From: Candidatus Omnitrophota bacterium
Lineage (GTDB): Bacteria; Omnitrophota; Gorgyraeia; Zapsychrales; JANLHA01
Assembly: GCA_963662715.1 (NCBI GenBank)
Contig: OY759724.1
Coordinates: 30,001-62,000 of the forward strand
DNA: 32,000 nucleotides
Direction of reading: 5' to 3'
Below are positions 1 through 23,901 of the stretch, piece by piece. The notes beneath the pieces are model-generated. The model saw nothing but the letters and a program-made list of their open reading frames with translations, was not told where the DNA came from and searched no databases. The translations under genes and the position numbers were made by a program. Numbering within the stretch: the first letter of the stretch is position 1; every line of letters begins with the position of its first letter.

Positions 1-3000
1 CCTGCCAATTAACCCCCGTATCACTTAACACATTCAAATCCTGCCAGTTGATCCCTGCATCACTTAATACATCAATATCTGCCCAGTTGATCCCCGCATC
101 ACTTAATACATCTATGTCCAGCCAGTTGATCCCCGCATCACTCATCACATCGATGTCCAGCCAGTTTATCCCCGCGTCACTCATATCATTCACACTCACC
201 CAGTTAATCCCCATGTCACTCATCACATTCAAATCCTGCCAGTTAATCCCCGTATCCGATAGCACATCCAAATCTAACCAATTAATCCCCGTATCACTTA
301 AGACATCAATATCCAGCCAGTTGATTCCCGCATTCGTCATATCACTCATACTCACCCAGTTCATCCCCATATCACTCATCACATCTATGTCCAGCCAGTT
401 GATCCCCGCGTCACTCATATCATTCACACTCACCCAGTTAATCCCCATGTCACTCATCACATTCAAATCCTGCCAGTTGATCCCCGTATCCGAGAGCACA
501 TCCATATCCTGCCAGTTGATCCCCGCATCGCTCAGGATATCCAAGTCCAGCCAGTTGATCCCCGCGTTCGTCATATCACTCATACTCACCCAGTTCATCC
601 CGATATCACTCATCACATCGATATCCAGCCAGTTGATCCCCGCGTCACTCATATCATTCACACTCACCCAGTTAATCCCCATGTCACTCATCACATTTAT
701 ATCCTGCCAGTTGATCCCCGTATCCGAGAGCACATCTAAATCCTGCCAGTTGATCCCCGCATCACTCAGGATATCCAAATCCAGCCAATTGATCCCCGCA
801 TTCGTCATATCACTCATACTCACCCAGTTCATCCCCGCATCACTCATCACATCGATATCCTGCCAGTTGATCCCCGCATCACTTAAATCATTCATGCTCA
901 CCCAGTTAATACCCATGTCACTCATAACATTTATGTCCTGCCAGTTGATCCCCGTATCCGATAGCACATCTAAATCCTGCCAGTTGATCCCCGCATCACT
1001 CAGGATATCCAAGTCCAGCCAGTTAATTCCCGCGTTCGTCATATCACTCATACTCACCCAGTTCATCCCCGTATCACTCATCACATCGATATCCAGCCAG
1101 TTGATCCCCGCGTCACTTAAATCATTCACACTCACCCAATTGATCCCCATATCACTCATCACATTCAAATCCTGCCAGTTGATCCCCGTATCCGAGAGCA
1201 CATCCAGATCCTGCCAGTTGATCCCCGCATCGCTCATCACATCGATGTCCAGCCAGTTGATCCCCGCGTCACTTAAATCATTCACACTCACCCAATTGAT
1301 CCCTATATCACTCATCACATTTATGTCCTGCCAATTAACCCCCGCATCACTTAACACATCAATATCCGACCAGTTGATCCCCGCATCTGATAGGACATCC
1401 AAATCCGACCAATTGATCCCTGTATCTGAAATAACATCAATGTCCGACCAGTTGATCCCCGCGTCCGAAAGAACATCGATATCCAGCCAGTTGATCCCCG
1501 CGTTCGTCATATCACTCATACTCACCCAGTTCATCCCCATATCACTCATCACATCGATATCCACCCAGTTGATCCCCGCGTCACTTAAATCATTCACACT
1601 CACCCAATTGATCCCCATATCACTCATCACATTTATGTCCTGCCAGTTGATCCCTGTATCACTCAATACATCCATATCCTGCCAGTTAATCCCCGCATCA
1701 CTCATCACATCGATATCCAGCCAGTTGATCCCCGCATCACTTAAATCATTCACACTCACCCAGTTAATCCCCATGTCACTCATAACATTTATGTCCTGCC
1801 AGTTGATTCCTGTATCTGATAGAACATCCAAATCCTGCCAGTTGATCCCTGCATCGCTCATCACATCCAAATCCAGCCAGTTGATCCCCGTATCTGATAG
1901 AACATCCAAATCCTGCCAGTTTATCCCCGCATCACTCATCACATCGATGTCCAGCCAGTTAATCCCCGCGTCACTTAAATCATTCACACTCACCCAATTG
2001 ATCCCCATATCACTCATCACATTTATGTCCTGCCAGTTGATCCCTGTATCACTCAATACATCCAAATCCCGCCAATTAATCCCCGCATCACTCAGAGCAT
2101 TAATATCCTGCCAGTTGATCCCTGTATCACTCAATACATCGATGTCCAGCCAATTGATTCCTGTGTCACTTAACACATCGATATCCAGCCAGTTGATCCC
2201 CGCGTTCGTCATATCACTCATACTCACCCAGTTCATCCCCATATCACTCAGCACATCAATATCCTGCCAGTTGATCCCCGCGTCACTCAAATCATTCACA
2301 CTCACCCAATTGATCCCCGCGTCACTCATCACATTTATATCTGACCAGTTGACCCCTGTATCGCTCAACACATCCAGATCCAGCCAATTAATCCCCGTGT
2401 CACTCATCACATCTATATCCAGCCAGTTGATCCCCGCATCGCTTAAATCATTCACACTCACCCAGTTCACCCCCGCACTGCTCATCACATCGATATCCAG
2501 CCAATTAATCCCCGTGTCACTCATCACATCTATATCCAGCCAGTTGATCCCCGCATCACTTAACACATCGATGTCCTGCCAGTTGATTCCCGCGTCTGAG
2601 ATAACATCCAGGTCCAGCCAGTTAATCCCCGCATCACTCATCACATCGATATCCAGCCAGTTAATCCCCGCGTCACTTAAATCATTCACACTCACCCAGT
2701 TCACCCCGGCACTACTCATCACATTTATGTCCTGCCAGTTGATCCCCGTATCGCTCAACACATCCAGGTCCAGCCAATTGATCCCCGCGTCACTCAGCAC
2801 ATTAATATCCTGCCAGTTAATTCCCGCATCACTCAGCACATTAATATCCTGCCAATTGATCCCCGCATCACTTAACACATCGATATCCAGCCAGTTGATC
2901 CCTGCGTCACTCAAATCATTCACACTCACCCAATTAATCCCCATATCACTCATCACATCAATATCCACCCAATTAATCCCTGTATCTGAAAGAACATCCA

Positions 3001-6000
3001 GGTCCAGCCAGTTGATCCCCGCATCACTTAACACATCGATGTCCTGCCAGTTGATTCCCGCGTCTGAGATAACATCCAGATCCAGCCAATTAATTCCCGC
3101 ATCACTCATCACATCGATATCCTGCCAGTTGATCCCCGCGTCACTCAAATCATTCACACTCACCCAATTTACCCCGGCATTGCTCATCACATCAATATCC
3201 TGCCAGTTGATCCCCGCGTCACTCAATACATCCAAATCCACCCAATTGATCCCCGCATCACTCAGAACATTAATATCTGACCAGTTGATCCCCGTATCTG
3301 AGATAACATCCAGATCCAGCCAATTAATTCCCGCATCACTTAACACATCGATATCCAGCCAGTTGATCCCCGCGTCACTTAAATCATTCACACTCACCCA
3401 GTTGATCCCCATATCACTCATCACATTTATGTCCTGCCAGTTGATCCCCGTATCGCTCAACACATCCAAATCCACCCAGTTGATCCCCGCATCACTTAAG
3501 ACATCCAAATCCTGCCAGTTAATCCCCGTATCACTTAACACATCGATGTCCTGCCAGTTCACTCCGGCGTCACTCATCACATCAATATCCAGCCAATTGA
3601 TCCCCGCGTCACTTAAATCATTCACACTCACCCAGTTTACCCCGGCACTACTCATCACATTTATGTCCTGCCAGTTGATCCCCGTATCGGATAGAACATC
3701 TAAATCCTGCCAATTAATCCCCGCGTCACTCATCACGTCAACATCCTGCCAGTTGATCCCCGCATCACTCAGATCATTCACACTCACCCAGTTGATCCCC
3801 ATATCACTCATCACATCAATGTCCAGCCAGTTGATCCCCGCGTCACTCAAATCATTCACACTCACCCAATTTACCCCGGCACTGCTCATCACATCGATGT
3901 CCTGCCAGTTGATCCCCGTATCTGACAGAACATCTAAATCCTGCCAGTTAATCCCCGCGTCACTCAACACATCAATGTCCAGCCAGTTAATCCCCGCATC
4001 ACTCAAATCATTCACGCTCACCCAATTAATTCCCATATCACTCAACACATCAATATCCAGCCAGTTGATCCCCGCATCACTTAAAATATTTAAATCCCTC
4101 CAATTGATTCCTGCGTCAGAGAAAACGTCCAAATCCTGCCAGTTAATCCCTACATCTGAAAGGACATCCAAATCCAACCAGTTGATCCCCGCATCACTTA
4201 ATACATCAATGTCCAGCCAGTTGATTCCCGCGTCACTCAAATCATTCACACTCACCCAGTTGATCCCCATATCACTCATCACATTTATATCCTGCCAGTT
4301 GATCCCCACATTCGTCATATCACTCATGCTCACCCAGTTCATCCCCATATCACTCATCACATTCAAATCCTGCCAGTTGATTCCCGTATCACTTAATACA
4401 TCCAAGTCCTGCCAGTTAATTCCCGCATCACTTAACACATCGATGTCCAGCCAGTTGATCCCCGCATTCGTCATATCACTCATACTCACCCAGTTCATCC
4501 CCATATCACTCATCACATCAATGTCCTGCCAGTTGATCCCCGCATCACTCAAGTCATTCATACTCACCCAGTTGATCCCTATATCACTCATCACATTTAT
4601 ATCTGACCAGTTGATCCCCGTGTCACTTAACACATCCATATCCGACCAGTTGATCCCCGCATCACTTAAGACATCTATGTCCAACCAGTTAATCCCCGCA
4701 TCCGTCATATCACCTATGTTTATCCAATTCACCCCCGCATCACTCATCACATCGATATCCTGCCAGTTGATCCCCGCGGCACTCAAATCATTCACACTCA
4801 CCCAGTTGATCCCCGCATCTGATAGAACATTCAAATCCGACCAATTAATTCCTGTGTCTGAGAGAACATCAATGTCCAGCCAGTTGATCCCCGCGTCACT
4901 TAAGACATCGATGTCCAACCAGTTCATCCCCGCATTCGTCATATCACTCATACTCACCCAGTTCATCCTTGCATCACTCATCACATCAATGTCCAGCCAG
5001 TTGATCCCCGCGTCACTTAAATCATTCACACTCACCCAATTGATCCCCGCGTCACTCATTTCATTAATGTCCGACCAATTGACTCCCGTATCACTTAACA
5101 CATCCCAATCCAGCCAGTTGATCCCCGCGTCACTCATCACATCGATATCCAGCCAGTTGATCCCCGCATCGCTTAAATCATTCACACTCACCCAATTGAT
5201 CCCCATATCACTCATCACATCAATATCCTGCCAATTGATCCCTGTGTCTGAAAGCACATCCAGGTCCAGCCAGTTGATCCCCGCCTCACTTAACACATCA
5301 ATGTCCAGCCAGTTGATCCCCGCCTCACTTAACACATCCAAATCCAGCCAGTTGATCCCCGCGTCACTCATCACATCTATATCCAGCCAGTTGATCCCCG
5401 CGTCACTCAAATCATTCACACTCACCCAGTTAATCCCCATGTCACTCATAACATTTATGTCCTGCCAGTTGATCCCTGTATCACTCAACACATCCAAATC
5501 CCGCCAATTAATCCCCGCATCACTCAGAGCATTAATATCCTGCCAGTTGATCCCTGTATCACTCAATACATCGATGTCCAGCCAATTGATTCCTGTGTCA
5601 CTTAACACATCGATATCCAGCCAGTTGATCCCCGCGTTCGTCATATCACTCATACTCACCCAGTTCATCCCCATATCACTCAGCACATCAATATCCTGCC
5701 AGTTGATCCCCGCGTCACTCAAATCATTCACACTCACCCAATTGATCCCCGCGTCACTCATCACATTTATATCTGACCAGTTGACCCCCGTATCGCTCAA
5801 CACATCCAGATCCAGCCAATTAATCCCCGTGTCACTCATCACATCTATATCCAGCCAGTTGATCCCCGCATCGCTTAAATCATTCACACTCACCCAATTA
5901 ATCCCCATATCACTCATCACATTTATATCTGACCAGTTGATCCCCGTGTCTGAAAGTACATCCAGGTCCACCCAGTTGATCCCCGCATCACTTAACACAT

Positions 6001-9000
6001 CGATGTCCAGCCAGTTGATCCCCGTATCTGAGATAACATCCAGGTCCAGCCAGTTAATCCTTGCATCACTCATCACATCGATATCCTGCCAGTTAATCCC
6101 CGCGTCACTTAAATCATTCACACTCACCCAGTTTACCCCGGCACTACTCATCACATCGATGTCCTGCCAGTTGATCCCCGTATCGCTCAACACATCCAGG
6201 TCCAGCCAATTGATCCCCGCGTCACTCAGCACATTAATATCCTGCCAGTTAATTCCCGCATCACTCAGCACATTAATATCCTGCCAATTGATCCCCGCAT
6301 CACTTAACACATCGATATCCAGCCAGTTGATCCCTGCGTCACTCAAATCATTCACACTCACCCAGTTCACCCCCGCACTGCTCATCACATCGATATCCAC
6401 CCAATTAATCCCTGTATCTGAAAGAACATCCAGGTCCAGCCAGTTGATCCCCACATCACTTAACACATCGATGTCCTGCCAGTTGATTCCCGCGTCTGAG
6501 ATAACATCCAGATCCAGCCAATTAATTCCCGCATCACTCATCACATCGATATCCTGCCAGTTGATCCCCGCGTCACTCAAATCATTCACACTCACCCAAT
6601 TTACCCCGGCATTGCTCATCACATCAATATCCTGCCAGTTGATCCCCGCGTCACTCAATACATCCAAATCCACCCAATTGATCCCCGCATCACTCAGAAC
6701 ATTAATATCTGACCAGTTGATCCCCGTATCTGAGATAACATCCAGATCCAGCCAATTAATTCCCGCATCACTTAACACATCGATATCCAGCCAGTTGATC
6801 CCCGCGTCACTTAAATCATTCACACTCACCCAGTTGATCCCCATATCACTCATCACATTTATGTCCTGCCAGTTGATCCCCGTATCGCTCAACACATCCA
6901 AATCCACCCAGTTGATCCCCGCATCACTTAAGACATCCAAATCCTGCCAGTTAATCCCCGTATCACTTAACACATCGATGTCCTGCCAGTTCACTCCGGC
7001 GTCACTCATCACATCAATATCCAGCCAATTGATCCCCGCGTCACTTAAATCATTCACACTCACCCAGTTTACCCCGGCACTACTCATCACATTTATGTCC
7101 TGCCAGTTGATCCCCGTATCGGATAGAACATCTAAATCCTGCCAATTAATCCCCGCGTCACTCATCACGTCAACATCCTGCCAGTTGATCCCCGCATCAC
7201 TCAGATCATTCACACTCACCCAGTTGATCCCCATATCACTCATCACATCAATGTCCAGCCAGTTGATCCCCGCGTCACTCAAATCATTCACACTCACCCA
7301 ATTTACCCCGGCACTGCTCATCACATCGATGTCCTGCCAGTTGATCCCCGTATCTGACAGAACATCTAAATCCTGCCAGTTAATCCCCGCGTCACTCAAC
7401 ACATCAATGTCCAGCCAGTTAATCCCCGCATCACTCAAATCATTCACGCTCACCCAATTAATTCCCATATCACTCAACACATCAATATCCAGCCAGTTGA
7501 TCCCCGCATCACTTAAAATATTTAAATCCCTCCAATTGATTCCTGCGTCAGAGAAAACGTCCAAATCCTGCCAGTTAATCCCTACATCTGAAAGGACATC
7601 CAAATCCAACCAGTTGATCCCCGCATCACTTAATACATCAATGTCCAGCCAGTTGATTCCCGCGTCACTCAAATCATTCACACTCACCCAGTTGATCCCC
7701 ATATCACTCATCACATTTATATCCTGCCAGTTGATCCCCACATTCGTCATATCACTCATGCTCACCCAGTTCATCCCCATATCACTCATCACATTCAAAT
7801 CCTGCCAGTTGATTCCCGTATCACTTAATACATCCAAGTCCTGCCAGTTAATTCCCGCATCACTTAACACATCGATGTCCAGCCAGTTGATCCCCGCATT
7901 CGTCATATCACTCATACTCACCCAGTTCATCCCCATATCACTCATCACATCAATGTCCTGCCAGTTGATCCCCGCATCACTCAAGTCATTCATACTCACC
8001 CAGTTGATCCCTATATCACTCATCACATTTATATCTGACCAGTTGATCCCCGTGTCACTTAACACATCCATATCCGACCAGTTGATCCCCGCATCACTTA
8101 AGACATCTATGTCCAACCAGTTAATCCCCGCATCCGTCATATCACCTATGTTTATCCAATTCACCCCCGCATCACTCATCACATCGATATCCTGCCAGTT
8201 GATCCCCGCGGCACTCAAATCATTCACACTCACCCAGTTGATCCCCGCATCTGATAGAACATTCAAATCCGACCAATTAATTCCTGTGTCTGAGAGAACA
8301 TCAATGTCCAGCCAGTTGATCCCCGCGTCACTTAAGACATCGATGTCCAACCAGTTCATCCCCGCATTCGTCATATCACTCATACTCACCCAGTTCATCC
8401 TTGCATCACTCATCACATCAATGTCCAGCCAGTTGATCCCCGCGTCACTTAAATCATTCACACTCACCCAATTGATCCCCGCGTCACTCATTTCATTAAT
8501 GTCCGACCAATTGACTCCCGTATCACTTAACACATCCCAATCCAGCCAGTTGATCCCCGCGTCACTCATCACATCGATATCCAGCCAGTTGATCCCCGCA
8601 TCGCTTAAATCATTCACACTCACCCAATTGATCCCCATATCACTCATCACATCAATATCCTGCCAATTGATCCCTGTGTCTGAAAGCACATCCAGGTCCA
8701 GCCAGTTGATCCCCGCCTCACTTAACACATCAATGTCCAGCCAGTTGATCCCCGCCTCACTTAACACATCCAAATCCAGCCAGTTGATCCCCGCGTCACT
8801 CATCACATCTATATCCAGCCAGTTGATCCCCGCGTCACTCAAATCATTCACACTCACCCAGTTGATCCCCATATCACTCATCACATCAATATCCTGCCAG
8901 TTGATCCCTGTATCACTCAACACATCCAAATCCCGCCAATTAATCCCCGCATCACTCAGAGCATTAATATCCTGCCAGTTGATCCCTGTATCACTCAATA

Positions 9001-12000
9001 CATCGATGTCCAGCCAGTTGATTCCCGCATCACTTAACACATCAATATCCAGCCAGTTGATCCCTGCGTTCGTCATATCACTCATACTCACCCAGTTCAT
9101 CCCCATGTCACTCATCACATCAATATCCTGCCAGTTGATCCCCGCGTCACTCAAATCATTCACACTCACCCAATTGATCCCCATGTCACTCATCACATCA
9201 ATATCCTGCCAGTTGATCCCCGTGTCACTTAACACATCAATATCCTGCCAGTTCACTCCGGCATCACTTAAAACACCTATATCCAGCCAGTTGATCCCCG
9301 CGTCACTCAAATCATTCACACTCACCCAGTTGATCCCCATATCACTCATCACATCGATATCCTGCCAATTGATCCCTGTATCTGAGAGCACATCCAAATC
9401 CACCCAATTAATTCCCGCATCTGAAAGCACATCCAAATCTGACCAGTTGATCCCTGTATCTGAGAGCACATCCAAATCCACCCAGTTGATCCCCGCATCA
9501 CTCAACACATCAATATCCAGCCAGTTGATCCCCGCGTCACTCAAATCATTCACACTCACCCAGTTAATCCCGGCACTGCTCATCACATCGATGTCCTGCC
9601 AGTTGATCCCCGTATCGCTCAACACATCCAGGTCCAGCCAATTGATCCCCGCGTCACTCAGCACATTAATATCCTGCCAGTTAATTCCCGCATCACTCAG
9701 CACATTAATATCCTGCCAGTTGATCCCCGCATCACTTAACACATCTAAATCCTGCCAGTTGATCCCCGCATCACTTAAATCATTCACGCTCACCCAGTTC
9801 ACTCCGGCACTGCTCATCACATCGATATCCAGCCAATTGATCCCTGTATCTGAAAGAACATTCAGGTCCAGCCAGTTGATCCCCGCATCACTTAACACAT
9901 CTAAATCCTGCCAGTTGATCCCCGCATCACTTAACACATCCCAATCCAGCCAGTTGATCCCCGCGTCACTCATCACATCAATATCCAGCCAGTTGATCCC
10001 CGCGTCACTTAAATCATTCACACTCACCCAGTTTACCCCGGCACTACTCATCACATCAATATCCAACCAGTTGATCCCTGTATCACTCAATACATCCAAA
10101 TCCACCCAGTTGATCCCCGCATCGCTCAGGACATTGATATCCTGCCAATTAATTCCCGTATCGCTCAACACATCCAAATCCAACCAATTGATCCCCGCAT
10201 CACTTAACACATCGATATCCAGCCAGTTGATCCCCGCATCACTTAAATCATTCACACTCACCCAGTTGATCCCCATATCACTCATCACATTTATGTCCTG
10301 CCAGTTGATCCCCGTATCGCTCAACACATCCAAATCCAGCCAGTTAATCCCCGAGGAAGACAGTTCAGCTATATTCATCCAATTAATCCCATTGATCGTC
10401 ATCTTTCCCATGTCTGTCCAGTTAATTCCTGCTTCAGACATAACTGTTATGTTATCCCAATTAATTCCTTTTAAAGACATTTCTCCAATATTCAACCAGT
10501 TAATATCTGAATCTGACATTTCTCCAATCCTATCCCAATTAATGCCACTCATTGTCATTTCGTCAAGATTTAACCAATTAACACCTGAAATCGACATGTC
10601 ACTGATGCTATCCCAATTAATTCCTTTATTAGCCATATCAACCAATCCATCCCAGTTCACTCCAGCATCGCTCATCACGTCAATATCCAGCCAATTGATC
10701 CCCGCATCAGTTAACACATCCAAATCCAACCAATTGATCCCCGCATCACTTAAGACATCGATATCCTCCCAGTTAATACCCTTATCCGCTAATACATCAA
10801 TATCTTTCCAATTTATCCCTGTATCACTCAGGATATCAATATCGGCCCAATTGATCCCCGCATCACTCAAATCATTCACACTCACCCAATTGATCCCCAC
10901 ATCACTCAGCACATCGATATCCAGCCAGTTGATCCCCGTATCACTCAAGTCATTTATACTTACCCAGTTCACCCCCGCACTGCTCATCACATCAATATCC
11001 GTCCAATTGATGCCCGTATCTGAAAGAATATCCAAATCCCTCCAATTAATTCCCGCATCACTTAAAACATCCAAATCCCGCCAGTTGATCCCTGCATCAC
11101 TTAACACATCCAAGTCCCGCCAGTTGATCCCCGCATCACTCAACACATCAATATCCAGCCAATTGATCCCCGCGTCACTTAAATCATTCACGCTCACCCA
11201 GTTCATCCCCACATCACTTAATACATCAATGTCCCGCCAGTTGATTCCCGTATCGCTTAGAACATTAATATCTTCCCAATTGATTCCCGCATCACTTAAG
11301 ACATCAATGTCTAACCAGTTAATGCCCGCATCACTCAGATCGTTGATTCCAGTCCAATTAATCCCTCTATCACTCAGCACATCAATATCCAGCCAATTGA
11401 TCCCCGCGTCACTCAAATCATTCACACTCACCCAGTTCACGCCCGCACTGCTCATCACATCGATATCCAGCCAGTTAATCCCCGTATCCGAAAAAACGTC
11501 CAAGTCCTGCCAGTTGATCCCTGCATCACTTAAGACATCGATATCCTGCCAGTTGATCCCTGCTTTTGACATAAGATCTATACCAGTCCAATTTACCCCT
11601 CTATCACTCATCACATCAATATCCGCCCAATTGATCCCTGCCGCACTCATACTATAGACGCTTAACCAGTTAATCCCTTGCTCGCTCATAATGTTAATAT
11701 CCTGCCAGTTAACTCCTGATAAACTTAAATCGTATATTCCTAACCAATTGATATTCCGAGTACTCATGACACCAACATCAAGCCAGTTGATGCCGGCCGT
11801 ACTTAATTCACCAATTTCAAGCCAATTGACAGCACGGTCACTCATCACATCCAAATCCAACCAATTGATCCCCGCATCACTTAAAACATTGATATCCATC
11901 CAATTAACCCCGGCATCACTTAAGACATCAAGATCGGCCCAATTAATTCCCATATCACTCATCACATCTATATCCAGCCAATTAATGCCGGCATCACTCA

Positions 12001-15000
12001 GATCATTTATGCTTACCCAATTAATCCCTCTGGCACTCATCACCTCAATATCAACCCAATTAATTCCCGTATCGCTTAAAACGTCCAGATCTTTCCAATT
12101 AATGCCGGTATCGCTTAGGATGTCAATATCGAGCCAGTTAATTCCCGCCCCACTCAAATCACTTAAATTGGTCCAATTGATCCCCCGGTCAGTTAAAACA
12201 TCGATATCTTTCCAATTAACCCCGGCATCACTCAGCACATCGATGTCCAGCCAGTTGATCCCTGCGTCACTCATATCATTAATGCTCACCCAGTTCATTC
12301 CTTGTTCGCTCAGGACCCTGACATCATCCCAATTAATCCCTGTATCACTCATCACATCTATATCCAGCCAATTAATGCCGGCATCAGACATATTCGCAAT
12401 GTTATCCCAATTAACTCCTGAAGAGGCAATCTCATCCCATCCTGTCCAATTTACATTCGCATCACTTAGGATATCAATATCCTGCCAGTTGATCCCCGCA
12501 TCACTCAAGATATCAAGATCGGCCCAGTTAATTCCGGCATCACTTAAAATATCAACATCCTGCCAGTTAATTCCGGTATCGCTCAGCACATCAATGTCCA
12601 GCCAGTTAATTCCGGATTCAGACAGGACCTGAATATCATCCCAGTTGACATTCGCGTCTGTCATATCACGAATGTTATCCCAGTTAACTCCCTGGATATC
12701 TATGGCCATATTTTCCAAATTCTCCCAATTAATTCCCGCGGAAGACAAATCCCCAAAATTATCCCAGTTAATACCGGCGGTCGTCATTTCCTCCAAACTG
12801 CTCCAGTTAACTCCCTGGACATCTATGGCCATTTCCTCTAACTCCGTCCAGTTGATCCCGGACGAAGACATTTCAGAAATATTCATCCAGTTAACATTGG
12901 AATTGGCCATATCCGCTAAACCCACCCAGTTAACTGCGGATTTACTGATTTCTTCAAGGGCAATCCAGTTCACCCCGGCTTCGGCCATATCAGCAATACT
13001 GTCCCAGTTGATTCCGGAGGTGGACATTTCTTCTATGTTTTCCCAATTCACCCCTTGAATATCAATAGCCATATTTTCCAGTTCCACCCAATTAATCCCC
13101 GCATCAGTCATCTCGGCCAAATTCATCCAGTTCACCCCGGCATCTGACAAGACATCAATAGCCGACCAATTGACACCCGCATCACTCAATACATCGATAT
13201 CCAGCCAGTTGATCCCCGCGTCGGACAAATCATTAATACTTATCCAGTTGATCCCCGCATCACTCAATACAGCGATATCATCCCAATTCACAGCTGAAGT
13301 CGCCAGATCATCCAAACCCGCCCAATTCATTCCGGCTGTACTTAATTCCGCGAGATCCGCCCAGTTCACACCGGCTGTTGACAGTTCATTAAATTCCGTC
13401 CAATTAATCCCGATATCGCTCAACACATCCAAATCCCGCCAGTTGATCCCCGCGTCACTCAGCGCATTGATATCCAGCCAGTTGATCCCCGCATCAGAAA
13501 GAACATCGATATCTTTCCAGTTAATGCCGGTATCAGAAAGGACGTCAATATCTTTCCAGTTAATGCCGGCCTCTGATAAAGCATTAATGTTTGTCCAATT
13601 AATGCCGACAGTACTTAACTCGGCGATATCATCCCAATTCACACCTGTCGTAGCGAGATCATCTAATCCGGTCCAGTTTACTCCGGCATGACTTAAAGCG
13701 GCAATGTCCTCCCAGTTGACACCAGCTGTAGATAATTCGTTAAATCCAACCCAGTTGATCCCAGTGTCACTCAACACATCCAGATCCAGCCAGTTGATCC
13801 CCGCATCAGTTAAGAGATCCAAATCCCGCCAGTTAATCCCGGCATCACTCAAGGCATCTAAATCCGCCCAATTAATGCCCGACATAGACATCTCCGTCAG
13901 ATTCGCCCAATTCATCCCCGATAAGGATAAAACACCGAAATCATACCAGTTGACTTCCGCTTTACTCATGATCTCCAGATCATCCCAGTTAAGGCCAACT
14001 TCCGACATGACAGTAAGATCTTCCCAATTCACTCCAGCGGTTGTCAGTTCCGCCAGATTATCCCAATTGATTGTTTCACTCCAATCCACGCCTGCTCCGC
14101 TCATATACGCTATATCAAACCAATTGACTCCGGCGTCACTCATAAATTCCATATCCTCCCAATTGATACCGGCCTCCGTCATGACCGTAATATCTTCCCA
14201 GTTGATCTGAGCCGCGGCCATTGAGTAGACATTTGTCCAATTGACCTGACTCGTCGTCATGACTTCCATATCATCCCAATTAACATCATCCAGGGCATCA
14301 GCAGACGATCTTATTGAAGAGAGGTCCGACATCAGAACCCCTATGTCATCCCAGTTGATCGTGTCTGTCTTGGATTTAATTTCCGTAATGTCCGTCCAGT
14401 TAATCGTATCGGTTTTGGCTTTGATATCCGTCACATTGGTCCAGTTGATGGACGATGTGTCGACTAAGATGTCGTTCACATCCTGCAAAATAGCAAACTG
14501 CGTCAAGTCATAGGTGTCATAGCTTGTATATGTCTGACTGCGGGCGTCGTAATAAATCAAGACCTCGGCAAAATAAGAAGAATCAAAATCAGGACTGTCC
14601 GCTGACCAGGCATAACTGAAAACATTGCTGGAAGGTGTTCCAAAATCTCCGGTTGAAATGGCTTTCTCAAGGGTCCCGTCCGGCTCGTAAATGTTGACAG
14701 CACAGGTATCGCTGGCCCCCAAAGTCACCCGGCCTTCGGACCCTTCCAGCCAGCACTTCACATACAGGTCCCCGTTGGAGTCGTCATAAACAACCGTGGA
14801 CATCGGAGTCGTACAGGGTTCAACGGTGAAAGCGGCGGTGGTATCGGAGATATAACCGCTTGCTGTCGCCTGCAAGGTATATCCCACTCCGGGGACAGGG
14901 ATTTGCAAATCGGTAAAAGTCGCCACACCGGAACCGTTTGTCGTCACGGTAGTCGTCCCGATCAGTGAAGAGCTTCCCGGATTTGACAAAATAGCAATAG

Positions 15001-18000
15001 TGACATCCACTCCCGAAGCAGAGTCGCTCGTGCTGACAATCGGCTGGTTTTCCAATAACTGACAAGAGAAAGAGGTCGTCGGCTCCTGGGTAAAGGTTAA
15101 GGTTTTATCCTCCATGGTGAAGGTTTGCACCGCGCTCCAGTCTCCCGGGACATCGGCCTCGCCAGAACCGCCGTCATGCGCCGTATCCCAGAAACGGATC
15201 CGCCAGTAATACGTTGAGCCGTCTATGGACAAAGCTGTTCCGGCATAAGAGACATCGTTCATTCGTGTGTTTTCGGTGACATCACTTCCCGTATCGGTTT
15301 TCCCGGTGTCCCACATGCGTGTGCCGTCAAAGGTATTGGCCGTGTCAACCTCAATCTCATAATAGGAACAGTCATCGGTGTCCGGATCATCACAGATGGC
15401 GGAGAACTCCGGGGTGGTGTCCGTCACGTCGGTCACGGGAGTCACAGAGCCCTCACAGTAAGGGGTGAGCGGAGCAGAAGCCACCTCATTGGTGACTTCA
15501 TCCGCCCCGATATCCGGGGATGTTCCGTCCCGGGCGTCCGCATCGATATCATCCGTAACAGGCAGATTGGCGTCACTGTCCAGATCTGTTCCGTTGGTCC
15601 CCCATAAGGTCAAACTATCGTGACGAAGGTGCAAATCTGTCGAGGTTGCTCCGGCTTCATAAAAATAGTCCGTATAATCCGTTTCATTGGTCTGGCTGCC
15701 GGTTCCGGAAGCCGTGGCATCAGATGACACATTATAAGACTGGGTGATTGTGCCGTTGAAACAAGCCTCGCTTCCATTCGTACTGTTTACTTCGCCGCAG
15801 GAAGAGTTTCTTACCGTCATCGTTCCGCTGACATTGTCGATCCCACGGGCATAACCCGTACTGCCGGTGTTGTTGATCGCATGAAGCGTGAGGTTGTGCA
15901 GATAATAAGTATCACCGCCAGATGCGGCTAACAGCCCGACAATGTTCGAGCTTGCATTCGTTGAGAGGTTTGTCATATCGTAAATTATCGTATTGCGAAC
16001 CTTCAGGTTCCCGTCATTTATAACAATCCCTCTCACATTGCTGGCGTCGGTGTCATCTGTCGTAGAGTTATCCAGATCATGAATGATGGCTTTACTGATC
16101 TGAATATCGGAACTGCTGTCGCTGATGGCGGCATTCAGCGAAATCCCATCAAGGTTTTCCGCATTCGTAATCTGTGATCCGTCTATCTCTATGCCTTCGA
16201 TACGGACATAATCATCGGATATATCAATGACCGAATAAGGATCGCCCGGGCTGGAATTCGAAGGCTGAATCACGACTCCCGTCCCTTCTTCACCGGTATG
16301 CCGCTGTGAGCTGCCGACCTCCGAGGATAAAGACGGGGCGAACATCCGGATATAATGAGTGCTGTCCGTCGTATAGCCGTCAATCGTCAACTGCGCGCCA
16401 GAGCCATCGGCCCCGTCAAACACGCCGTCAGAATACAAAACCCAGTTCAGCTGGACGTCCGCACCGGCAGAGGTCAGATCCGCGCTGTTGAGGTAACTCC
16501 CCCCGGATGAATTCGATTCCGCGGAGGAAAGCGTGTTAAACGCGCGGCTAATAGACGTGACGGCCGTGCTTGACAGATCTGACGGGACGGCGCCCGTGGC
16601 TGTTGTCACGGTATAAACCGTCGAAGACTGCCGGCTCTGAATATAATAAGTATTTCCCCCGGCGACGAGTTCGTCTCCGGCCCCGACATCATCCGCCTGA
16701 GCGGCAGTAAATTCGGCTGTATGATTGGTGATCGTGACGTTGGGAGAACCGCTTGTCAGATCACCCGTATCCGTTCCGACAGAATAATAGACTTCCACGA
16801 CCGGTTCGATAGAAAGATACGGACGATCAGAGGCGGAAGACGCGTCTTGGCTATGTATGCTGACATACTCGGCGCCCGATGGAGAGGTTCCGCTAACGTC
16901 CCTGTCGGACAAGAGGGCATAGAGGGTACTGCCGCTGGTGGAAACATAGGAGGTGTCAAGGCTTTGGGAAGAATAATAAACACCTGTCGACATCCCGGAC
17001 GTCCCGCGCCAGTCGGCGTCATACGTGCTGGCCAACGCCCCGTCAAAATTTGATTCTTGATATGAAGCGATCGGACTCGACCAACTGTATTGATGTATCC
17101 GGGCTGTAAAATCCGTTGTGGAGGCATCTGTGTTCGCTTTAAGATACAAATGAGCCCTGGCCGGAGCGGCGGATAAAGACGATGTGTCAAAAGACAAATA
17201 AGCCCGGTGGACATCATATACAAGGCCGGCGGTAAAATTCTGCCCGACTAAAAAAGTGGCTCCGGAATCATCGCTCGAGGACGATGAGTTACGGGCCTGC
17301 GTATAAGAGGGGTCCTGTCCCGAAATATATCCGTCCGCCGAATTCCCGTAAAATGTATCGGGATCAATCTGAACAGGATAAGCGGCATTTTTAAACCAGT
17401 CTAAGGGGAACTGAACCGAGACACAGAACGCATGCTCCTCCGAAGACGGCTGAGTTGATGTGTCTTTTCCCGTATCCGGAAGAGGGCTGAGGATAAATTG
17501 CCCGTAAACCTTTTCCCCGTTGGCATCTATGGCAACAGGCTTTTTCCACCACCATAAAACTTTTTTCTCCTCATCCACAAAATCCACATGCGTCGTTACG
17601 GAAGGTTTTCTGTCATTCCAAATTTTGCCATCAAAGAGCAGCTCCAAATCCGTCGCAAAATGAAGCGTAAGGGAAAGAGCTGAACCGGCAGAAGGCTCAG
17701 CAGAACCGGACAAGGATAAAGAATCCAAAGATTCCACAGAGAGAATCTTGATGAAACGGACATCGCTGGGAGTATAACGGAAATTCAATCCCCGGCCGTA
17801 AGCCTCCGGCCATTCAATAAATCCGCCCCCGGAGACGATATCAAAGGGCTTATTGCTGACCTGCCCTGTAACGGGACGGGGCCTGGCCAGGATGTGTTGC
17901 GTTCTTTTTTCTGTATCATCTTCAGAAAAGTGAACAGAAAGAGGTCCCGGGACAGCTTCTAAATAATGGCCGTCTTTCTCCAGACGTAAAATTTTGTGTT

Positions 18001-18588: not shown

Positions 18589-20511
18589 TCACTCACTCAT
18601 CTGATCAACGATCTCTTCTTTAGCGCCCGTGTATTTCCACCAATTCTCGCGTTCTTCTCTCACTTCTTTGTCTAAAGACGAATCAATGCTGCCCATGAGC
18701 TCCATCTGAGCGGCAATGATTTTTTCTTTAACTAAATGCAGATCCTCCGCTTCCGGATTTAACCATAAATACTGCTGATAATGAGTCAACGCTGTTTTAA
18801 AATCTCCCAAATATTCACTGGAAACAAATGCGAGATTAAAGTGGGCGTTCGCATCATGAGGGACAAGCTGAACGGCCTTCCGGTACTCGTCCCGGGCTCT
18901 GCCATAATGTCCCTGATGAAAAAATATATTCCCCATGTTGTAATGCACTTTCCCCTCATCTTCCCGCATGGTTTCATGTTCCGAGGACATTTCGTCCAGC
19001 ATGGAAATAACTTTCTGACTCCTCACGCGGTCGTGAAATGCCGCGTCGGCCAAAACCTGCTCTTCCCCGGCAAATGATATTTCCGGCGCCGCCTCTGAAC
19101 TGACAACAGCCCCTCCCTGCGCCAGTAAACCGCCTGTCAGATCATGCTTTAATTGCTCGGCCTGAGATTGCAGCCGGACGATCTGCTGCTCCCACACATT
19201 GAGTTTGTTCGAAGCAACCCCATCAGATGAGCGGGACAAATTCCCAAGCAGCTCTTCTTTCGCCTCGCTCACCATACTGGCAAGCTGCCTCGCTTCCGCC
19301 AAAGCAATCCCTTTGTATTTTTCCGTCAGCTTCTGCTCAATGACATTGACTTGCGCAAGAATATCATTGATGCGTTTTTTTGCTAATTGTTTCTGCCGCG
19401 TTTTAAAATCTGAAATTTCCTGCTCTTTCTTAGCCAATTGATTCTCCAGTTGCTGAATCTCTTCCTGCAAGGCATTTTTCCGTTCGGCACTCATTTCCGA
19501 AGGCAAAGAAGAATATTCCTGGGACTTATCGGCTAAGGTCTGCTGTACTGTCTCAACCTGAGCGACCATCTCCTGCGATTTCGATTCCTGTTCTTCCTTG
19601 AATTTCTCAAACTCCTGACTTCGCTGAGCAAGTTGTTTCTCCAGGCCTTTCAGCTCCTCCGTTAAACTCATAGCCTTGCTCTCGGCAGCTTCCTTGGCGG
19701 TCTGCAACTCGGATATTTGCGCCTGGTATTCCCGAGTTTTATTTTTGAGCTCCTCCTCCAGTTGCGACACCTGCCGAGAAAGCTTTTCAAGATCTTCTTC
19801 TGCCTGCGTCCGCTGCTCTTCGCTCAGCTGTTTCATCTCGTCTTCCCGTTCCATCATCTGGCGACGCAACTCCACAATGGTTTTTTGAAGATGATTTAAC
19901 TCACGCGCTGATATCTCAACCTGGACGGTCTCCCCCTCTTCCGGGATAATTCCGGGACTCGGCTCGGCCAGCATAAATTCTAACTTCTGATTCTTTTCAA
20001 CGAGCTCTTTTTCTATTTCAGCAATTCTTTCCTGCAACTTCAGCACATTTTTTTGTGAATTCTCCAGCATGCCTTTATAGGAATCCCGCTCTTTATCAAG
20101 GACACGCAAACGGTTCACCTCGATTGTTCGCTGGCCCCGCAAATTTTTCAACTGTTGATCCAATCCCTTCTTTTGAGACTCTAATTCCTGATTCTTTTCA
20201 ATGGCCTCTTTTAAAATGCGGTTCAGTTGAATAATTTTTTCGGGGCTTAAGGATTCACCCACATCGACCTGCACGGCTGTTATCTCTTTGGCCCCTGCCC
20301 CGGAACCGGGAATCTCCTTTTCCGTTTGTCTCCGGCCGAATTTCGGCTTTTCTACGACAATTTGATCCAGGCCAATTTCCGTTTCAATGATCGTGACATC
20401 CCCCTCAACCGTCACCGGTCGATCTTGCGCAGATACCACGGCAGGACACAGTGACCACAACCATAAACAGGATAAAATAACCGTTAAATTTTTATTTCCT
20501 CTATGTATCAT
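18589..20511 (-). CDS. Secreted coiled-coil protein with a C-terminal TPR domain (MshN/PilF-like role possible)
   Basis: 640-aa ORF. The N-terminus MIHRGNKNLTVILSCLWLWSLCPAVVSAQ looks like a signal peptide. A region of about 380 aa is E/K/Q/L-rich (for example LQERIAEIEKELVEKNQKLE and QLENQLAKKEQEISDFK). TPR-like helices lie at the C-terminus (YNMGNIFFHQGHYGRARDEYRKAVQLVPHDANAHFNLAF...ALTHYQQYLWLNP). The ATG is 7 nt after the secretin stop. Confidence 0.8.
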   Translation of the reverse strand: MIHRGNKNLTVILSCLWLWSLCPAVVSAQDRPVTVEGDVTIIETEIGLDQIVVEKPKFGRRQTEKEIPGSGAGAKEITAVQVDVGESLSPEKIIQLNRILKEAIEKNQELESQKKGLDQQLKNLRGQRTIEVNRLRVLDKERDSYKGMLENSQKNVLKLQERIAEIEKELVEKNQKLEFMLAEPSPGIIPEEGETVQVEISARELNHLQKTIVELRRQMMEREDEMKQLSEEQRTQAEEDLEKLSRQVSQLEEELKNKTREYQAQISELQTAKEAAESKAMSLTEELKGLEKQLAQRSQEFEKFKEEQESKSQEMVAQVETVQQTLADKSQEYSSLPSEMSAERKNALQEEIQQLENQLAKKEQEISDFKTRQKQLAKKRINDILAQVNVIEQKLTEKYKGIALAEARQLASMVSEAKEELLGNLSRSSDGVASNKLNVWEQQIVRLQSQAEQLKHDLTGGLLAQGGAVVSSEAAPEISFAGEEQVLADAAFHDRVRSQKVISMLDEMSSEHETMREDEGKVHYNMGNIFFHQGHYGRARDEYRKAVQLVPHDANAHFNLAFVSSEYLGDFKTALTHYQQYLWLNPEAEDLHLVKEKIIAAQMELMGSIDSSLDKEVREERENWWKYTGAKEEIVDQMSE

Positions 20512-20518
20512 GCAGGCA

Positions 20519-22195
20519 TCAATCCTTTAATTTTAAAACGTGTTGGTCCCGTTGAAAATTCTCTGCCCCGTATTCCGCCGCAGGCTTCAACTGCCCCTTA
20601 TAGTCGCTAAACGGCTTCTCGTGCGAAATAATATGGGGAGTAATAAAAATCACAATTTCCGTAGCCTCTATCGAAGACTCTTCCGAACTGAATAAACGTT
20701 TCACAAAAGGGATATCCATAAGAACAGGGAAACCCTTCTTCACATGAACTTTGTTTTCCTTCTTCAACCCCCCCAGAACAATCGTCATGCCGTCTTTCAC
20801 CATAACCGTCGTTTCGACTAAGGTTTTATTGACTTGAGGGATTCCTCCCCCCTGCGATTCAATAGAACCGACAACTGTCGAGATTTCCGGCTTTAAGGCC
20901 ATCGTGACAAATCCATCATTATTAATGGTCGGGGTCACGTTCACTTTTAATCCGACATCCACGAACCGGACGTCTTCCGATGTTATGGCATTATCGCCTG
21001 TCCCGGAGGTTGTTGAAATAATATAAGGGACCGTGTCACCGACATGAATCTTTGCCTCCTCGTTATTCGTGACAAGAATCTTCGGGTTCGAGAGGATTTT
21101 CGTGTTACTGACAGACTTCAAGGCTCTGATCGCCAGTTCAAACTGATTGACATCAATGTCCCCGATGCCGTAGCGCATATAATTTGAAAACAAATTGTCT
21201 CCGGAAGACAGGTTGTCTTCGTCTAAAAAGATACTGTCAAAACTCATCCGGCGCAAAATATTATAATCACTCTTTCTGAAATCCAGCTGCCAATCGATAC
21301 CGAAATCCTGCTCGGGCTTAAACACAACCTGCAAGACACGGGCTTCAACGAGCACTTCTTTTGTCGGCTGGTCCAGAGATAGTATGAGGGCTTCAATCTC
21401 ACTCCGGCGGTCCGGGAAAGCCCGCACGATGAGTTGATTCGTTCTCTCATCAACGGTAATAGACCCGACAGAATGCGCATCAATGCGTGCTTTCAATTTT
21501 TCCGCCAGCACATCCGCTTTGGCATACTGAAGCGTATAAATAAAAGGCGCCAAAGGTTTCTCCAGGCCCGAAATAGCCTCTTTCATTTTCCCAACGGTAC
21601 CTTTGTTGTCGATCAGAACCACCGACCCGGTATCCTCATCAATAATAATACGTCCCAAAGCGCTTTTAATATTTTCCAAAGCGGCCAGGACATAACTCGG
21701 CTTAGCGTATTTCAGCTGGATAATCTCAACAACACTATTGTCGTTGAATTTTTTACCGTACATCACCTCATACTCCTGTTCCGTCATAACCCGAATAATA
21801 TCATTTTCCACAATATACGCCAACCGACTGGAAAGAACCGCGATGTCCAAGGCGTCCTGAATGGAAACGCTCTTCAAATAAAACGTCGCTCTTCCCTGGA
21901 TCGTTCCGTGCGTTACAAGGTTGAAATCCCCTTTTAACGCTAAGAATTTAAGAACATCAATCACGCTCATCTCCCGAACGTCCAGGGTGATTTTTTTCTC
22001 CAAACGTTGCTCCAGGGGAATTTTCGGCCCGTCAAATTCAATCGGGCGCGGAGACGTCATTTGCAAACGCAGTTCATCTTCCTGCCGGGGGACAGTCATG
22101 TTTTGCGCTGGCAGAGGCCCGCACCAGAGACAGCCCCAGGCCACCATCAACAGGAAAAACAAAACATTCCTAAAAATATCAAGCCGGCTTTTCAT
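20519..22195 (-). CDS. Secretin (GspD/PilQ/MshL family outer-membrane channel)
   Basis: 558 aa with a signal peptide. An N0/STN-like region is present (ITLDVREMSVIDVLKFLALKGDFNLV...DALDIAV). The C-terminal secretin core is canonical: ILSNPKILVTNNEEAKIHVGDTVPYI...VDVGLKVNVTPTINNDGFVTMALKPEIS...TTVMVKDGMTIVLGGL...FPVLMDIPFVKRLF...EIVIFITPHII. The start overlaps the upstream gene's stop by 4 nt (ATGA). Confidence 0.92.
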   Translation of the reverse strand: MKSRLDIFRNVLFFLLMVAWGCLWCGPLPAQNMTVPRQEDELRLQMTSPRPIEFDGPKIPLEQRLEKKITLDVREMSVIDVLKFLALKGDFNLVTHGTIQGRATFYLKSVSIQDALDIAVLSSRLAYIVENDIIRVMTEQEYEVMYGKKFNDNSVVEIIQLKYAKPSYVLAALENIKSALGRIIIDEDTGSVVLIDNKGTVGKMKEAISGLEKPLAPFIYTLQYAKADVLAEKLKARIDAHSVGSITVDERTNQLIVRAFPDRRSEIEALILSLDQPTKEVLVEARVLQVVFKPEQDFGIDWQLDFRKSDYNILRRMSFDSIFLDEDNLSSGDNLFSNYMRYGIGDIDVNQFELAIRALKSVSNTKILSNPKILVTNNEEAKIHVGDTVPYIISTTSGTGDNAITSEDVRFVDVGLKVNVTPTINNDGFVTMALKPEISTVVGSIESQGGGIPQVNKTLVETTVMVKDGMTIVLGGLKKENKVHVKKGFPVLMDIPFVKRLFSSEESSIEATEIVIFITPHIISHEKPFSDYKGQLKPAAEYGAENFQRDQHVLKLKD

Positions 22196-22929
22196 AAACG
22201 GACGTTCATCCTTTCCCCCATGTAGGAAAAATCTACGCTGTCTGCGTAAATCTTTTCAACTTTGACCCCAAGGAACTCCTCTCCTGTTTTCAGGAAATGA
22301 GTGACCTCTGTCTGATGATCTTCTATCATGACAGTTACCGAATCCGGCGACTCAAGCCAAGAAATTCCGACCAGCTTAAACTGATTGAGTTTCTCGGCAA
22401 TCAGTTGATTAGGCAGGACTTCTTCCACGGCTTCATCCACGACTTCCACCTTTCTTTCAAAAGGCTGAAAAATATTCCGATAAGAGACAAGACTCATATA
22501 TTCCGTAACATCTTTGACAATATTTTCAAGACGGCCGGCCAGGCCTTTTTGTGAGGATGTCAAAGCAGGAATCTCTACTTGAATGGATCTTTGGGCAGAC
22601 TTCATGCCTTTGCTGAAATCAGACACAAAATAGGCGCCCACAAGCAAAAGGGCAAAAAACAAAACTTTGTTTAATTCCCTGACGCTTAATGTCTGCGGTA
22701 TTTGAGCCATTGTGGCGGGATTCCGGATCAGCTGAAACAATTGTCCGATCCCGGATGGTAAAGTGAGCGTGCCCATCCCCAAACTTTGAACCGAATCCAA
22801 GGTCTTCTGCGCATCCGCATTGACCGAGGCAGCAGAGGAAGAGGACGGCGCAGCAGCAGAAGCGGGTTCCTGAGCTTCTGTGGCCTCAATGAGTTTGAGA
22901 AGTTTTTGTTCTGCAGTTTCTTTGGCCAT
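22192..22929 (-). CDS. Bitopic inner-membrane protein with a GspC/PilP-like (HR-type) C-terminal domain
   Basis: 245 aa. The N-region is low complexity and A/S-rich. There is one TM segment (VLFFALLLVGAYFV). The C-terminus LVGISWLESPDSVTVMIEDHQTEVTHFLKTGEEFLGVKVEKIYADSVDFSYMGERMNVRL matches the 'L-x-G-I ... A-x-I ... y-x-x-G-d-x-l ... v-x-x-I ... V-x-l ... g' pattern of secretin-binding domains. The stop is translationally coupled to the secretin start. Confidence 0.5.
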   Translation of the reverse strand: MAKETAEQKLLKLIEATEAQEPASAAAPSSSSAASVNADAQKTLDSVQSLGMGTLTLPSGIGQLFQLIRNPATMAQIPQTLSVRELNKVLFFALLLVGAYFVSDFSKGMKSAQRSIQVEIPALTSSQKGLAGRLENIVKDVTEYMSLVSYRNIFQPFERKVEVVDEAVEEVLPNQLIAEKLNQFKLVGISWLESPDSVTVMIEDHQTEVTHFLKTGEEFLGVKVEKIYADSVDFSYMGERMNVRL

Positions 22930-22965: not shown

Positions 22966-23901
22966 TTATCCTTGAGGGGATTCCCCCTGTTTGAAGCCTG
23001 CATGCGGGAATAATCGGTATCCCAAATCGAACGGATTTTGCTGGGGAAGGTCAAGGCCCCGTATCCGGAATTGCTCTTCCTTATCAACCACGTCTCGCAC
23101 TAATCTTCGATCAACGGCATGCTTATTCTGCAAGATTAACTCTTTAAGGACCTGATGACATAGTTTCGTGATTTTCCGCGGATAACCTCGTGTGTAGTTA
23201 TAAATCTCTGATATCGCCTCATCCAGGAACAATTCCATCCGGCTATTATACCCGGCTGTCGTCACGCGGAAGAGGATCAATTCTTTCGTTTCTTTTGCGT
23301 CAAGCGGATTGAGAGTATATTTAAAACTTACCCGATCAATAAAATTCGGCATCGTCATAATCTTGGCGTATAATTCCACCTGCCCCAACAAAACAAGCTG
23401 TAAAAGTTTGAACTCATTGGTTTCAAAATTTAAAAGCACGCGCAAAGTTTCCAGTGTTTCCAAATCCAATTTCTGAGCCTCATCAATGATTAATATGACC
23501 GTTTGCCTTTCTTCCAAGGCTTTATGAATAAGAAATTTTTCAAAAGCATCGCGCAATTCTAAAATATCAGCCTTATAAGGATCAAATCCGAAAAAAGAAT
23601 CAACGTTAAAATTTCTGGCCAGGGAGATAAGGAATTGTTTTTCATCGGAGAAGACGGGATTGAGGATAATGTGAAAAAGCATATTGCCGCGCTTTTTCAA
23701 TTCCTGAACAAGCAATCGGGACAGACTTGTTTTCCCGGTTCCGACATCGCCAAAAATCACGGACAAGCCTCGTTTGAGATGAAGCTCAATCAGGATATTT
23801 GTGAGAGCCATGTCATGTTCTTTTGTGAGATAAAAGAACTCGGGATCCGGGCTCGTGGAGAATGGTTCTTTATGAAATCCTAAAAGTGTATAATAGGCCA
23901 T
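22966..23901 (-). CDS. ExeA/GspA/MshM-family AAA ATPase (secretin assembly factor type)
   Basis: 311 aa. The N-terminus MAYYTLLGFHKEPFSTSPDPEFFYLTKEHDMAL is typical of ExeA. The Walker A motif is GDVGTGKTS and the Walker B motif is VILIIDEAQKL. Confidence 0.85.
   Translation of the reverse strand: MAYYTLLGFHKEPFSTSPDPEFFYLTKEHDMALTNILIELHLKRGLSVIFGDVGTGKTSLSRLLVQELKKRGNMLFHIILNPVFSDEKQFLISLARNFNVDSFFGFDPYKADILELRDAFEKFLIHKALEERQTVILIIDEAQKLDLETLETLRVLLNFETNEFKLLQLVLLGQVELYAKIMTMPNFIDRVSFKYTLNPLDAKETKELILFRVTTAGYNSRMELFLDEAISEIYNYTRGYPRKITKLCHQVLKELILQNKHAVDRRLVRDVVDKEEQFRIRGLDLPQQNPFDLGYRLFPHAGFKQGESPQG

Follow-up and report, generated by a model that had tools for sequence, protein, structure and literature searches.

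Whether a perfect 2.4-kb repeat inside a giant gene records recent recombination or an error of assembly, and what kind of recombination might have produced it, is the question raised by a locus of a Candidatus Omnitrophota bacterium (GenBank assembly GCA_963662715.1). We analysed a window of 32,000 nucleotides (contig OY759724.1, positions 30,001 to 62,000 of the forward strand), and all coordinates given here are those of the window. The gene lies on the minus strand (2..18412, with its ATG at 18412) and leaves the window at the left end, its C-terminus lying outside. A single nucleotide tandem array of 39-bp units (2..14443, minus strand) takes up at least 78% of the part of the gene that lies in the window, and its approximately 370 units each encode 13 amino acids (aa). 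Our favoured reading, to which we give a probability of about two in three, is that the perfect repeat is the youngest part of a higher-order repeat and that ongoing unequal recombination or gene conversion between its super-units keeps them in concerted evolution.

Self-comparison of the window showed that 3022..5431 and 6454..8863, encoding residues 4328-5131 and 3184-3987 of the minus-strand protein, respectively, are identical letter for letter over 2,410 bp and are bounded by first mismatches at 3021/6453 (G versus A) and 5432/8864 (A versus G). An initial annotation of this DNA had reported the same length of identity, an offset of 3,432 bp and the same flanking mismatches, all of which were reproduced exactly. 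The offset corresponds to 88 x 39 bp or 1,144 codons and is in frame on either strand, which agrees with the in-frame event proposed there; the event lies inside a protein-coding tandem array. At no other offset does the array as a whole match itself so well (76.8% identity over 10.9 kb), the runner-up being 234 bp with 73.4% identity. Among all exact self-matches within 1-14400 that reach 70 bp, the longest measures 2,410 bp and the next ones 299, 206, 140 and 128 bp; being an eightfold size outlier, the block is therefore not a by-product of general repetitiveness. The perfect core comprises 803 codons with 446 synonymous sites, none of which has changed (proportion of synonymous differences <0.0067), as against a synonymous divergence (dS) of 0.78-0.99 between older super-unit copies in the minus frame. 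These values fit the very recent date that the annotation had assigned to the event.

The block is embedded in an 88-unit higher-order repeat (3,432 bp, 1,144 aa) on the minus strand, of which the window holds at least 3.7 copies, and the array continues past the window edge. Super-unit D (9254..12685, 88 units), nearest the N-terminus, is the most diverged, with 74% nucleotide identity to C (5822..9253, 88 units). Super-units C and B (2390..5821, 88 units) are 97.8% identical at the nucleotide and 97.7% at the amino-acid level, and B shares 85% nucleotide identity with A (2..2389), a partial copy of 61 units cut by the window edge. The super-unit starts annotated initially (2034, 5466 and 8898) are a valid phase of the same period, and the third copy had rightly been called clearly diverged, at what we find to be about 74% nucleotide identity. 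Four features had gone unnoticed: the partial further copy to the left (2-2389), with the array leaving the window; the near-identity reaching well past the perfect core, approximately 2019-5750 against 5451-9182, with its mismatches clustered in patches; the minus coding strand; and the 13-aa repeat that the 39-bp units encode.

Identity at the 3,432-bp offset is graded. It stands at approximately 0.8 over 1-2,000, is 0.96-1.0 over about 2,019-3,021, where dense mismatch patches occur, and 1.0 in the core, and then declines rightward to 0.95-0.97 up to about 5,750 and 0.8-0.9 up to about 6,900, reaching background by about 9,300. The left shoulder (2019..3021, minus strand) is approximately 95% identical to 5451-6453 and contains mismatch patches at 2465-2539 and 2933-2960. 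Exact counterparts of the patches occur elsewhere: the 28-bp patch version at 6365 is found again at 2465, the two versions bordering the block on its right have exact matches at 1766 and at 5198/8630, and patch variants recur at offsets of 234, 468 and 3,666 bp. Judged from these recurrences, the clustering of the patches points to short-tract exchange among units at other registers, rather than to scattered point mutations. One stretch of near-identity is shared three ways (2019-2340, 5451-5772 and 8883-9204) and so also involves copy D. Such a gradient, from a 100% core through shoulders of approximately 95-99% with donor patches to flanks of 80-90%, is typical of repeated unequal exchange or gene conversion. 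The earlier proposal of segmental duplication or gene conversion thus holds as regards a recent exchange, whereas the identity gradient with its donor patches does not favour one clean segmental duplication.

We infer the following course of events. Adjacent super-units would recombine in register, through unequal crossing-over between sister chromosomes, template switching or gene conversion, and each exchange would add, remove or overwrite blocks while leaving the reading frame and the 13-aa register unbroken. The 2,410-bp perfect identity would represent the latest exchange, and the shoulders with their converted patches, followed by the 85% and 74% copies, would represent earlier rounds of the same process. 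A repeat stalk evolving in this way would change length in steps of 1,144 aa, and relatives may for this reason carry very different lengths.

The strongest competitor to this reading, which we consider improbable but by no means negligible, is an artefact of assembly or polishing, in which differences between copies were erased by multi-mapped reads or the repeat loop was traversed the wrong number of times. A perfect 2.4-kb repeat is beyond short-read resolution, and at k = 127 about 36% of the k-mers of the array are non-unique, nearly all of them in the two blocks and their shoulders. Moreover, the related public contigs that enter the array end inside it with one exception, and this one, assembled right through (locus L022, described below), has a short array without a long exact repeat. 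Against an artefact stands the unique 1,022-bp spacer (5432..6453, minus strand) that makes up the rest of the super-unit, which has 50 mismatches to 2000-3021 and 101 to 8864-9885. Since this unique spacer has the block on both of its sides, at least two tandem copies of the block must exist, and a plain assembler-made copy of 3,432 bp is excluded because it would have given a perfect run of 3,432 bp and not 2,410. In addition, single-base differences are resolved in the shoulders only 1-60 bp outside the block, the open reading frame (ORF) is intact for 18.4 kb, so that consensus quality is high, and the graded identity is the pattern expected of a natural array. The signature of an assembly artefact seen in the initial annotation therefore does not extend to a plain exact tandem copy, but miscounted copies or identity inflated by polishing are possible: extra copies of block plus spacer may have been collapsed, or a few real differences may have been erased.

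A search for relatives in GTDB genomes and JGI metagenomes yielded 17 loci, each of them cut off within the array or short of it. The three longest (L001, L003 and L004) are colinear with the window down to the window-equivalent positions 9,699-10,023, and the others end at 11,030-13,056. No relative's contig ending inside the array passes approximately 9,700, which is about where the homogeneous super-unit zone begins. This is consistent with the relatives also holding homogeneous zones that cannot be assembled. The terminal 20-mers of these contigs, checked for upstream repetition of the contig ends, were unique within each contig and uninformative. A side observation concerns L001 (JGI Ga0496409_0002117, approximately 16,900-18,654), in which an orthologue with 66% identity owes its called length of 2,304 aa solely to a +1 frameshift near 16,910, the repeats continuing in another frame to the contig end. 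In all likelihood the frameshift is an error made in assembling the repeat, but it may also mark a pseudogene.

We regard as distinctly unlikely a single clean and recent tandem duplication of the whole 3,432-bp super-unit, that is, one unequal crossover with the shoulder differences arising later and no gene conversion. One crossover predicts identity over the full 3,432-bp period, and the near-identical zone at about 2019-5750 (3.7 kb) comes close to that. However, the shoulders carry approximately 5-7 isolated differences per kb in addition to dense patches, at which rate about 12-17 changes would be expected in the 2,410-bp core, where none is observed. Changes in the shoulders with none in the core make the core younger than the shoulders and thus require more than one exchange event. 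The exact donors of the patch variants elsewhere in the array and the near-identity shared three ways with copy D likewise speak against a single duplication. The zone of approximately 3.7 kb is nevertheless compatible with a single unequal crossover that was followed by further conversion.

Comparison of reading frames places the gene on the minus strand. Its ORF spans at least 6,137 codons from the ATG at 18412 to the left end of the window. The ratio of nonsynonymous to synonymous divergence (dN/dS) between super-unit copies is 0.145-0.19 in this frame, 0.36-0.39 in the plus-strand shadow frame and approximately 1 in the other minus frames. Because the minus frame has the lowest dN/dS and its head has orthologues, we assign the gene to this strand and regard the plus-strand ORFs as antisense shadows; the array coding sequence is under purifying selection (dN/dS approximately 0.15). 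The largest shadow (48..11657, plus strand) would encode 3,869 aa of low complexity ('SQLIPASL...'), has the higher dN/dS and no homologues, and is not a gene, and further antisense shadow ORFs lie opposite the minus-strand gene at 11691-12632, 13170-13691 and 13704-14210. They owe their existence solely to the absence of stop codons from the 39-bp unit when it is read in this antisense frame. Read on the plus strand, the sequence therefore suggests a different context. That the plus-strand ORF is nonetheless the real gene, or that the array is non-coding satellite DNA whose identity has nothing to do with a protein, is hardly credible, since the plus frame, although open for 3,884 codons, yields a low-complexity product, whereas the minus frame has the lowest dN/dS, is open for 6,149 codons (18448 to 2), runs into a head with clear orthologues, and is the sense in which the 13-aa unit is read in other proteins.

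The protein begins with MRQPFLK..., followed by a hydrophobic segment, and this start aligns with those of orthologues (P0001: MHQPFLK...). Its N-terminal head (14300..18412, minus strand, approximately 1,370 aa) consists of the hydrophobic signal or anchor segment and then a mostly unannotated, non-repetitive region with Ig-like modules, the Ig-like Rha78A_N module (Ig_Rha78A_N) being its sole Pfam match. Searches with the head gave no NCBIfam match and no PDB sequence match. Head orthologues with 38-67% identity occur in Candidatus Omnitrophota metagenome-assembled genomes, some of them labelled 'uncultured Planctomycetales', and in metagenome contigs. Only one hydrophobic segment, the N-terminal one, was seen in the giant protein. 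The protein is acidic and, given this segment and the secretin, GspC-like and ExeA-like genes adjacent to its own, may be secreted or located at the cell surface.

The repeat unit has the consensus N-W-[LQV]-D-[ILV]-[DN]-[VD]-[LM]-S-D-[AT]-G-I, or in short N-W-x-D-I-D-V-L-S-D-A-G-I, and is unannotated. Its N, W, S and G hardly vary, and 18.5% of array residues are Asp. The spacing from Trp to Trp is exactly 13 residues in 358 of 373 cases, with no indel in the 326 consecutive units from 12724 to 2. Pfam scans and a PDB sequence search gave no genuine match for the array repeat. Pfam matches to Ntox33, Lysostaphin_N, Met_gamma_lyase and SAM_CEP-1_C were rejected as spurious, as no single stretch passes alone and the scores sum weak partial matches; EF-hand, dockerin and TSP3 motifs, compared by eye, do not fit the unit. 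The repeat is rare, with 290 representative clusters at E ≤1e-3 among 1.84 billion proteins, almost all of them fragments and the longest 2,809 aa.

Single 39-bp units are only about 60-80% identical to one another. Unit-to-unit identity is approximately 0.61 at odd lags and 0.65-0.70 at even lags, and reaches 0.82 at lag 6 and 0.93 at lag 88. The units of 2-12685 (minus strand) thus follow an even/odd parity, and in the homogeneous zone variant 'NWVS(V/M)(N/S)D' units always lie 2, 4 or 6 units apart. This parity suggests a structural pair of 26 aa and a 78-aa sub-period, both of which would be nested in the 88-unit block. The array also shows a GC skew of about -0.5 on the plus strand (C-rich), sustained over 13 kb of 1-14000, which stems entirely from the amino acids that the repeat is made of (minus-strand codons for Asp, Gly, Trp and Val). 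A skew of this size would distort skew-based prediction of the replication origin for this genome.

Approximately 15 units of the 'G(I/V)NW' type were also seen outside the window, in proteins of 800-1,400 aa (P0041, P0042, P0043, P0046, P0047 and P0055) whose N-terminal regions resemble Peptidase_M26_N/GLUG and whose C-terminal domains are Ig-like (Flg_new_2, N_BRCA1_IG). The presence of the unit in these proteins makes the micro-repeat a wider unannotated module, not confined to the giant gene. In P0005, from a 1,183-bp JGI contig, GINW-type repeats are joined to a C-terminal stretch that by eye resembles an ABC ATPase (UvrA-like); this is probably a chimeric or mis-called short contig.

One complete orthologue was found, P0026 in L022 (JGI contig Ga0395783_0001152; L022 10001-18430). 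It has 2,809 aa, and its head is 50% identical to that of the window protein. Approximately 75 units are followed by a non-repeat C-terminal domain of about 270 aa, helical-looking and ending in ...KTWFEAE; C-terminal fragments of other family members have the same domain. The L022 array shows no super-unit, and none of its exact repeats exceeds 91 bp. With so short an array lacking a super-unit in L022, the zone of at least 325 units in the window appears as a lineage-specific expansion. Upstream of the giant gene, L022 has the same gene order as the window (GcvP, LplA, GT2, DUF2304, methyltransferase, GT2, AAA_22 ATPase, T2SSC, secretin and TPR protein), which makes the locus syntenic. The two orthologues differ by at least 3,300 aa (2,809 against at least 6,137 aa), and the change of length in large quanta, as first suggested in the initial annotation, is plausible in the light of this syntenic complete orthologue.

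We used AlphaFold to predict the fold of the repeat. With a 103-row alignment, one of five models showed a single 10-residue beta strand per unit (predicted local distance difference test score, pLDDT, 69.8; predicted template modelling score 0.69). In contrast, a 28-row alignment gave short helices with a pLDDT of 38, contradicting the beta model. A Foldseek search with the beta model found no match at E ≤1e-3, and the weak matches were to beta-helix enzymes, with template modelling scores of at most 0.46. By analogy with other surface proteins that carry long tandem arrays, the array may form an extended stalk.

Several considerations weigh against our interpretation of the repeat as the youngest product of continuing exchange. 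Copy number and perfect identity are read from the assembled consensus and may differ in the genome itself. The contrast between no change in the core and several in the shoulders needs at least two events. Lengths were seen to differ only among remote orthologues, whose heads share 50% identity, and one of these sequences might in principle be a collapsed assembly. Finally, the two AlphaFold runs disagree on the fold, which weakens the idea of a stalk.

The surroundings of the gene are those of a secretion or pilus-like locus. Directly upstream, all on the minus strand, lie a coiled-coil/TPR protein (18589..20511), a PilQ/GspD-like secretin (20519..22195; Secretin 1.6e-47 and Secretin_N), a GspC-like protein (22192..22929) with a weak match (GspC_delta 1.3e-4), whose L022 orthologue matches T2SSC, and an ExeA-like AAA_22 ATPase (22966..23901). 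The 176-bp gap between the TPR gene and the giant gene (18412-18589) contains a sigma-70-like promoter match at 18579-18551 (minus strand), and there is no obvious Shine-Dalgarno sequence before the ATG of the giant gene. The model most similar to the ATPase is TIGR03015 (XrtA/PEP-CTERM system-associated ATPase; 3e-53), with a score short of the curated cut-off. Two GT2 glycosyltransferases and a methyltransferase flank the ATPase, an arrangement hinting that exopolysaccharide or protein-sorting functions are linked to the locus. We rejected PEP-CTERM sorting as the route of the giant protein, as the TIGR03015 match does not reach the curated cut-off and a PEP-CTERM motif is lacking at the C-terminus of the family (...WFEAE). 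Searches of the window brought up neither tRNA genes nor Rfam families.

Downstream of the giant gene, L022 carries a 427-aa unknown gene, an F-type ATPase operon, PilZ and PilM/N. The C-terminal fragments of other family members are likewise followed by an F-type ATPase operon and GspE/F/G genes: beyond the unknown gene of approximately 430 aa and the operon lie GspE (MshEN) and GspF in L020 and L021, and GspG in L021. It is unusual for pilus or secretion genes to be separated from the giant gene by an ATP synthase operon.

How the array relates to known repetitive systems is best seen level by level. Higher-order repeats such as centromeric alpha-satellite and rDNA arrays undergo concerted evolution, in which they are homogenised at the higher-order period while copies at the edges are more diverged. 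Our array resembles them in having monomers of 60-80% identity nested in multi-monomer units that are up to 100% identical, but it is protein-coding, with a dN/dS of approximately 0.15, and keeps strictly to multiples of 39 bp. The extenders of giant RTX adhesins (Marinomonas MpIBP, Pseudomonas LapA and Salmonella SiiE) consist of near-identical tandem repeats whose copy number is hard to assemble; they set the reach of the adhesin and likewise undergo in-frame recombination with change of length. Their repeats are Ig-like and approximately 100 aa long, and they use type I secretion, C-terminal RTX repeats and an N-terminal retention module. Like them, the giant protein is dominated by a tandem array of hard-to-assemble copy number, and it may be a surface protein. 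In contrast, there are no HemolysinCabind or BIg matches and no sign of a retention module in the window protein or P0026, and no type I secretion genes in the locus.

A further parallel may be found in the Periscope proteins (SasG/Aap, Rib, Sgo_0707 SHIRT, Esp and CdrA), bacterial surface proteins of variable length whose repeats share high DNA identity (Whelan et al. 2021, PMC8201768). The identity of their repeat DNA permits in-frame intragenic recombination with gain or loss of repeats, short-read assemblies of the genes fail and long reads are needed for counting the repeats (PMC8201768). As in Periscope proteins, a long tandem array stands behind an N-terminal head. Other traits of that class are a repeat number that differs among strains of one species and repeats forming a rod by which a functional N-terminal domain is held away from an anchored C-terminus. 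The high repeat identity that characterises them is found here at the level of the super-unit (97.8%, with a perfect core of 2,410 bp) and not at that of the 39-bp unit (approximately 60-80%). The exchanged unit would thus be an 88-unit block of 1,144 aa built from 13-aa micro-repeats, and not one folded domain of approximately 80-130 aa. Further differences are that the repeat has no Pfam model, that the host is an uncultured member of the Omnitrophota and not a pathogen, and that lengths are compared between distant orthologues only.

Giant proteins of the Archaeovorin and Dockerin types have been described in the Omnitrophota (West-Roberts et al. 2023, bioRxiv 10.1101/2023.11.21.568195; 2026 preprint 10.64898/2026.06.07.730766). 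Conserved secretion or pilus-like loci adjoin the giant genes, which are proposed to help in attaching to prey or host cells and digesting them (10.1101/2023.11.21.568195). The 2026 survey found strict nucleotide tandems to be rare in long genes of the phylum and concluded that these genes do not typically undergo recent tandem expansion, and that their repeat architectures are of ancient date and have ceased to be tandem in the DNA itself (10.64898/2026.06.07.730766). The present gene agrees with these in phylum, in its great length and in the fragmentation of assemblies within its repeats. Its locus is also similar, with a secretin, a GspC-like protein and an ExeA-like ATPase upstream, and GspE/F/G, PilZ and PilM/N downstream in the relatives L020-L022. 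Unlike the Archaeovorin type, which has HEAT repeats, a divergent SecA DEAD domain, many transmembrane regions and multi-enzyme content, it shows none of these, and Pfam matched only Ig_Rha78A_N, apart from the spurious summed matches, when the head, the array and P0026 were scanned; unlike the Dockerin type, it has no dockerin/EF-hand or TSP3 Pfam matches in these same three regions. As a 39-bp nucleotide tandem array with a perfect 2.4-kb repeat, it would be an exception among the surveyed long genes.

In-frame unequal recombination in a repetitive surface-protein gene is a textbook mechanism, and the gene family itself is poorly described. The present case differs from known ones in that the exchanged element would be a higher-order block of 1,144 aa made of diverged 13-aa micro-repeats, and in that the repeat family is undescribed. 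Public short-read assemblies nearly always cut the giant gene short, and the family is therefore nearly invisible in databases. Lengths given for its proteins are lower bounds unless long reads span the array, and automatic gene callers may choose the 3,869-aa antisense shadow ORF over the real gene.

If the duplication is real, at least one giant gene of the Omnitrophota is still expanding or homogenising at the nucleotide level. It is tempting to speculate that the 88-unit repeat serves as a built-in length module, with which cells could gain or lose 1,144-aa quanta of a very long acidic fibre that would have an undescribed 13-aa (26-aa paired) fold, would be exported via the flanking secretin and pilus-like machinery, and whose reach to prey or host would vary within populations. 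We put this forward tentatively, as an idea that may well prove wrong. If true, such a length module would act in the manner of Periscope proteins but by way of nested micro-repeats, and this in a phylum whose giant genes have been reported to be without recent tandem expansion.

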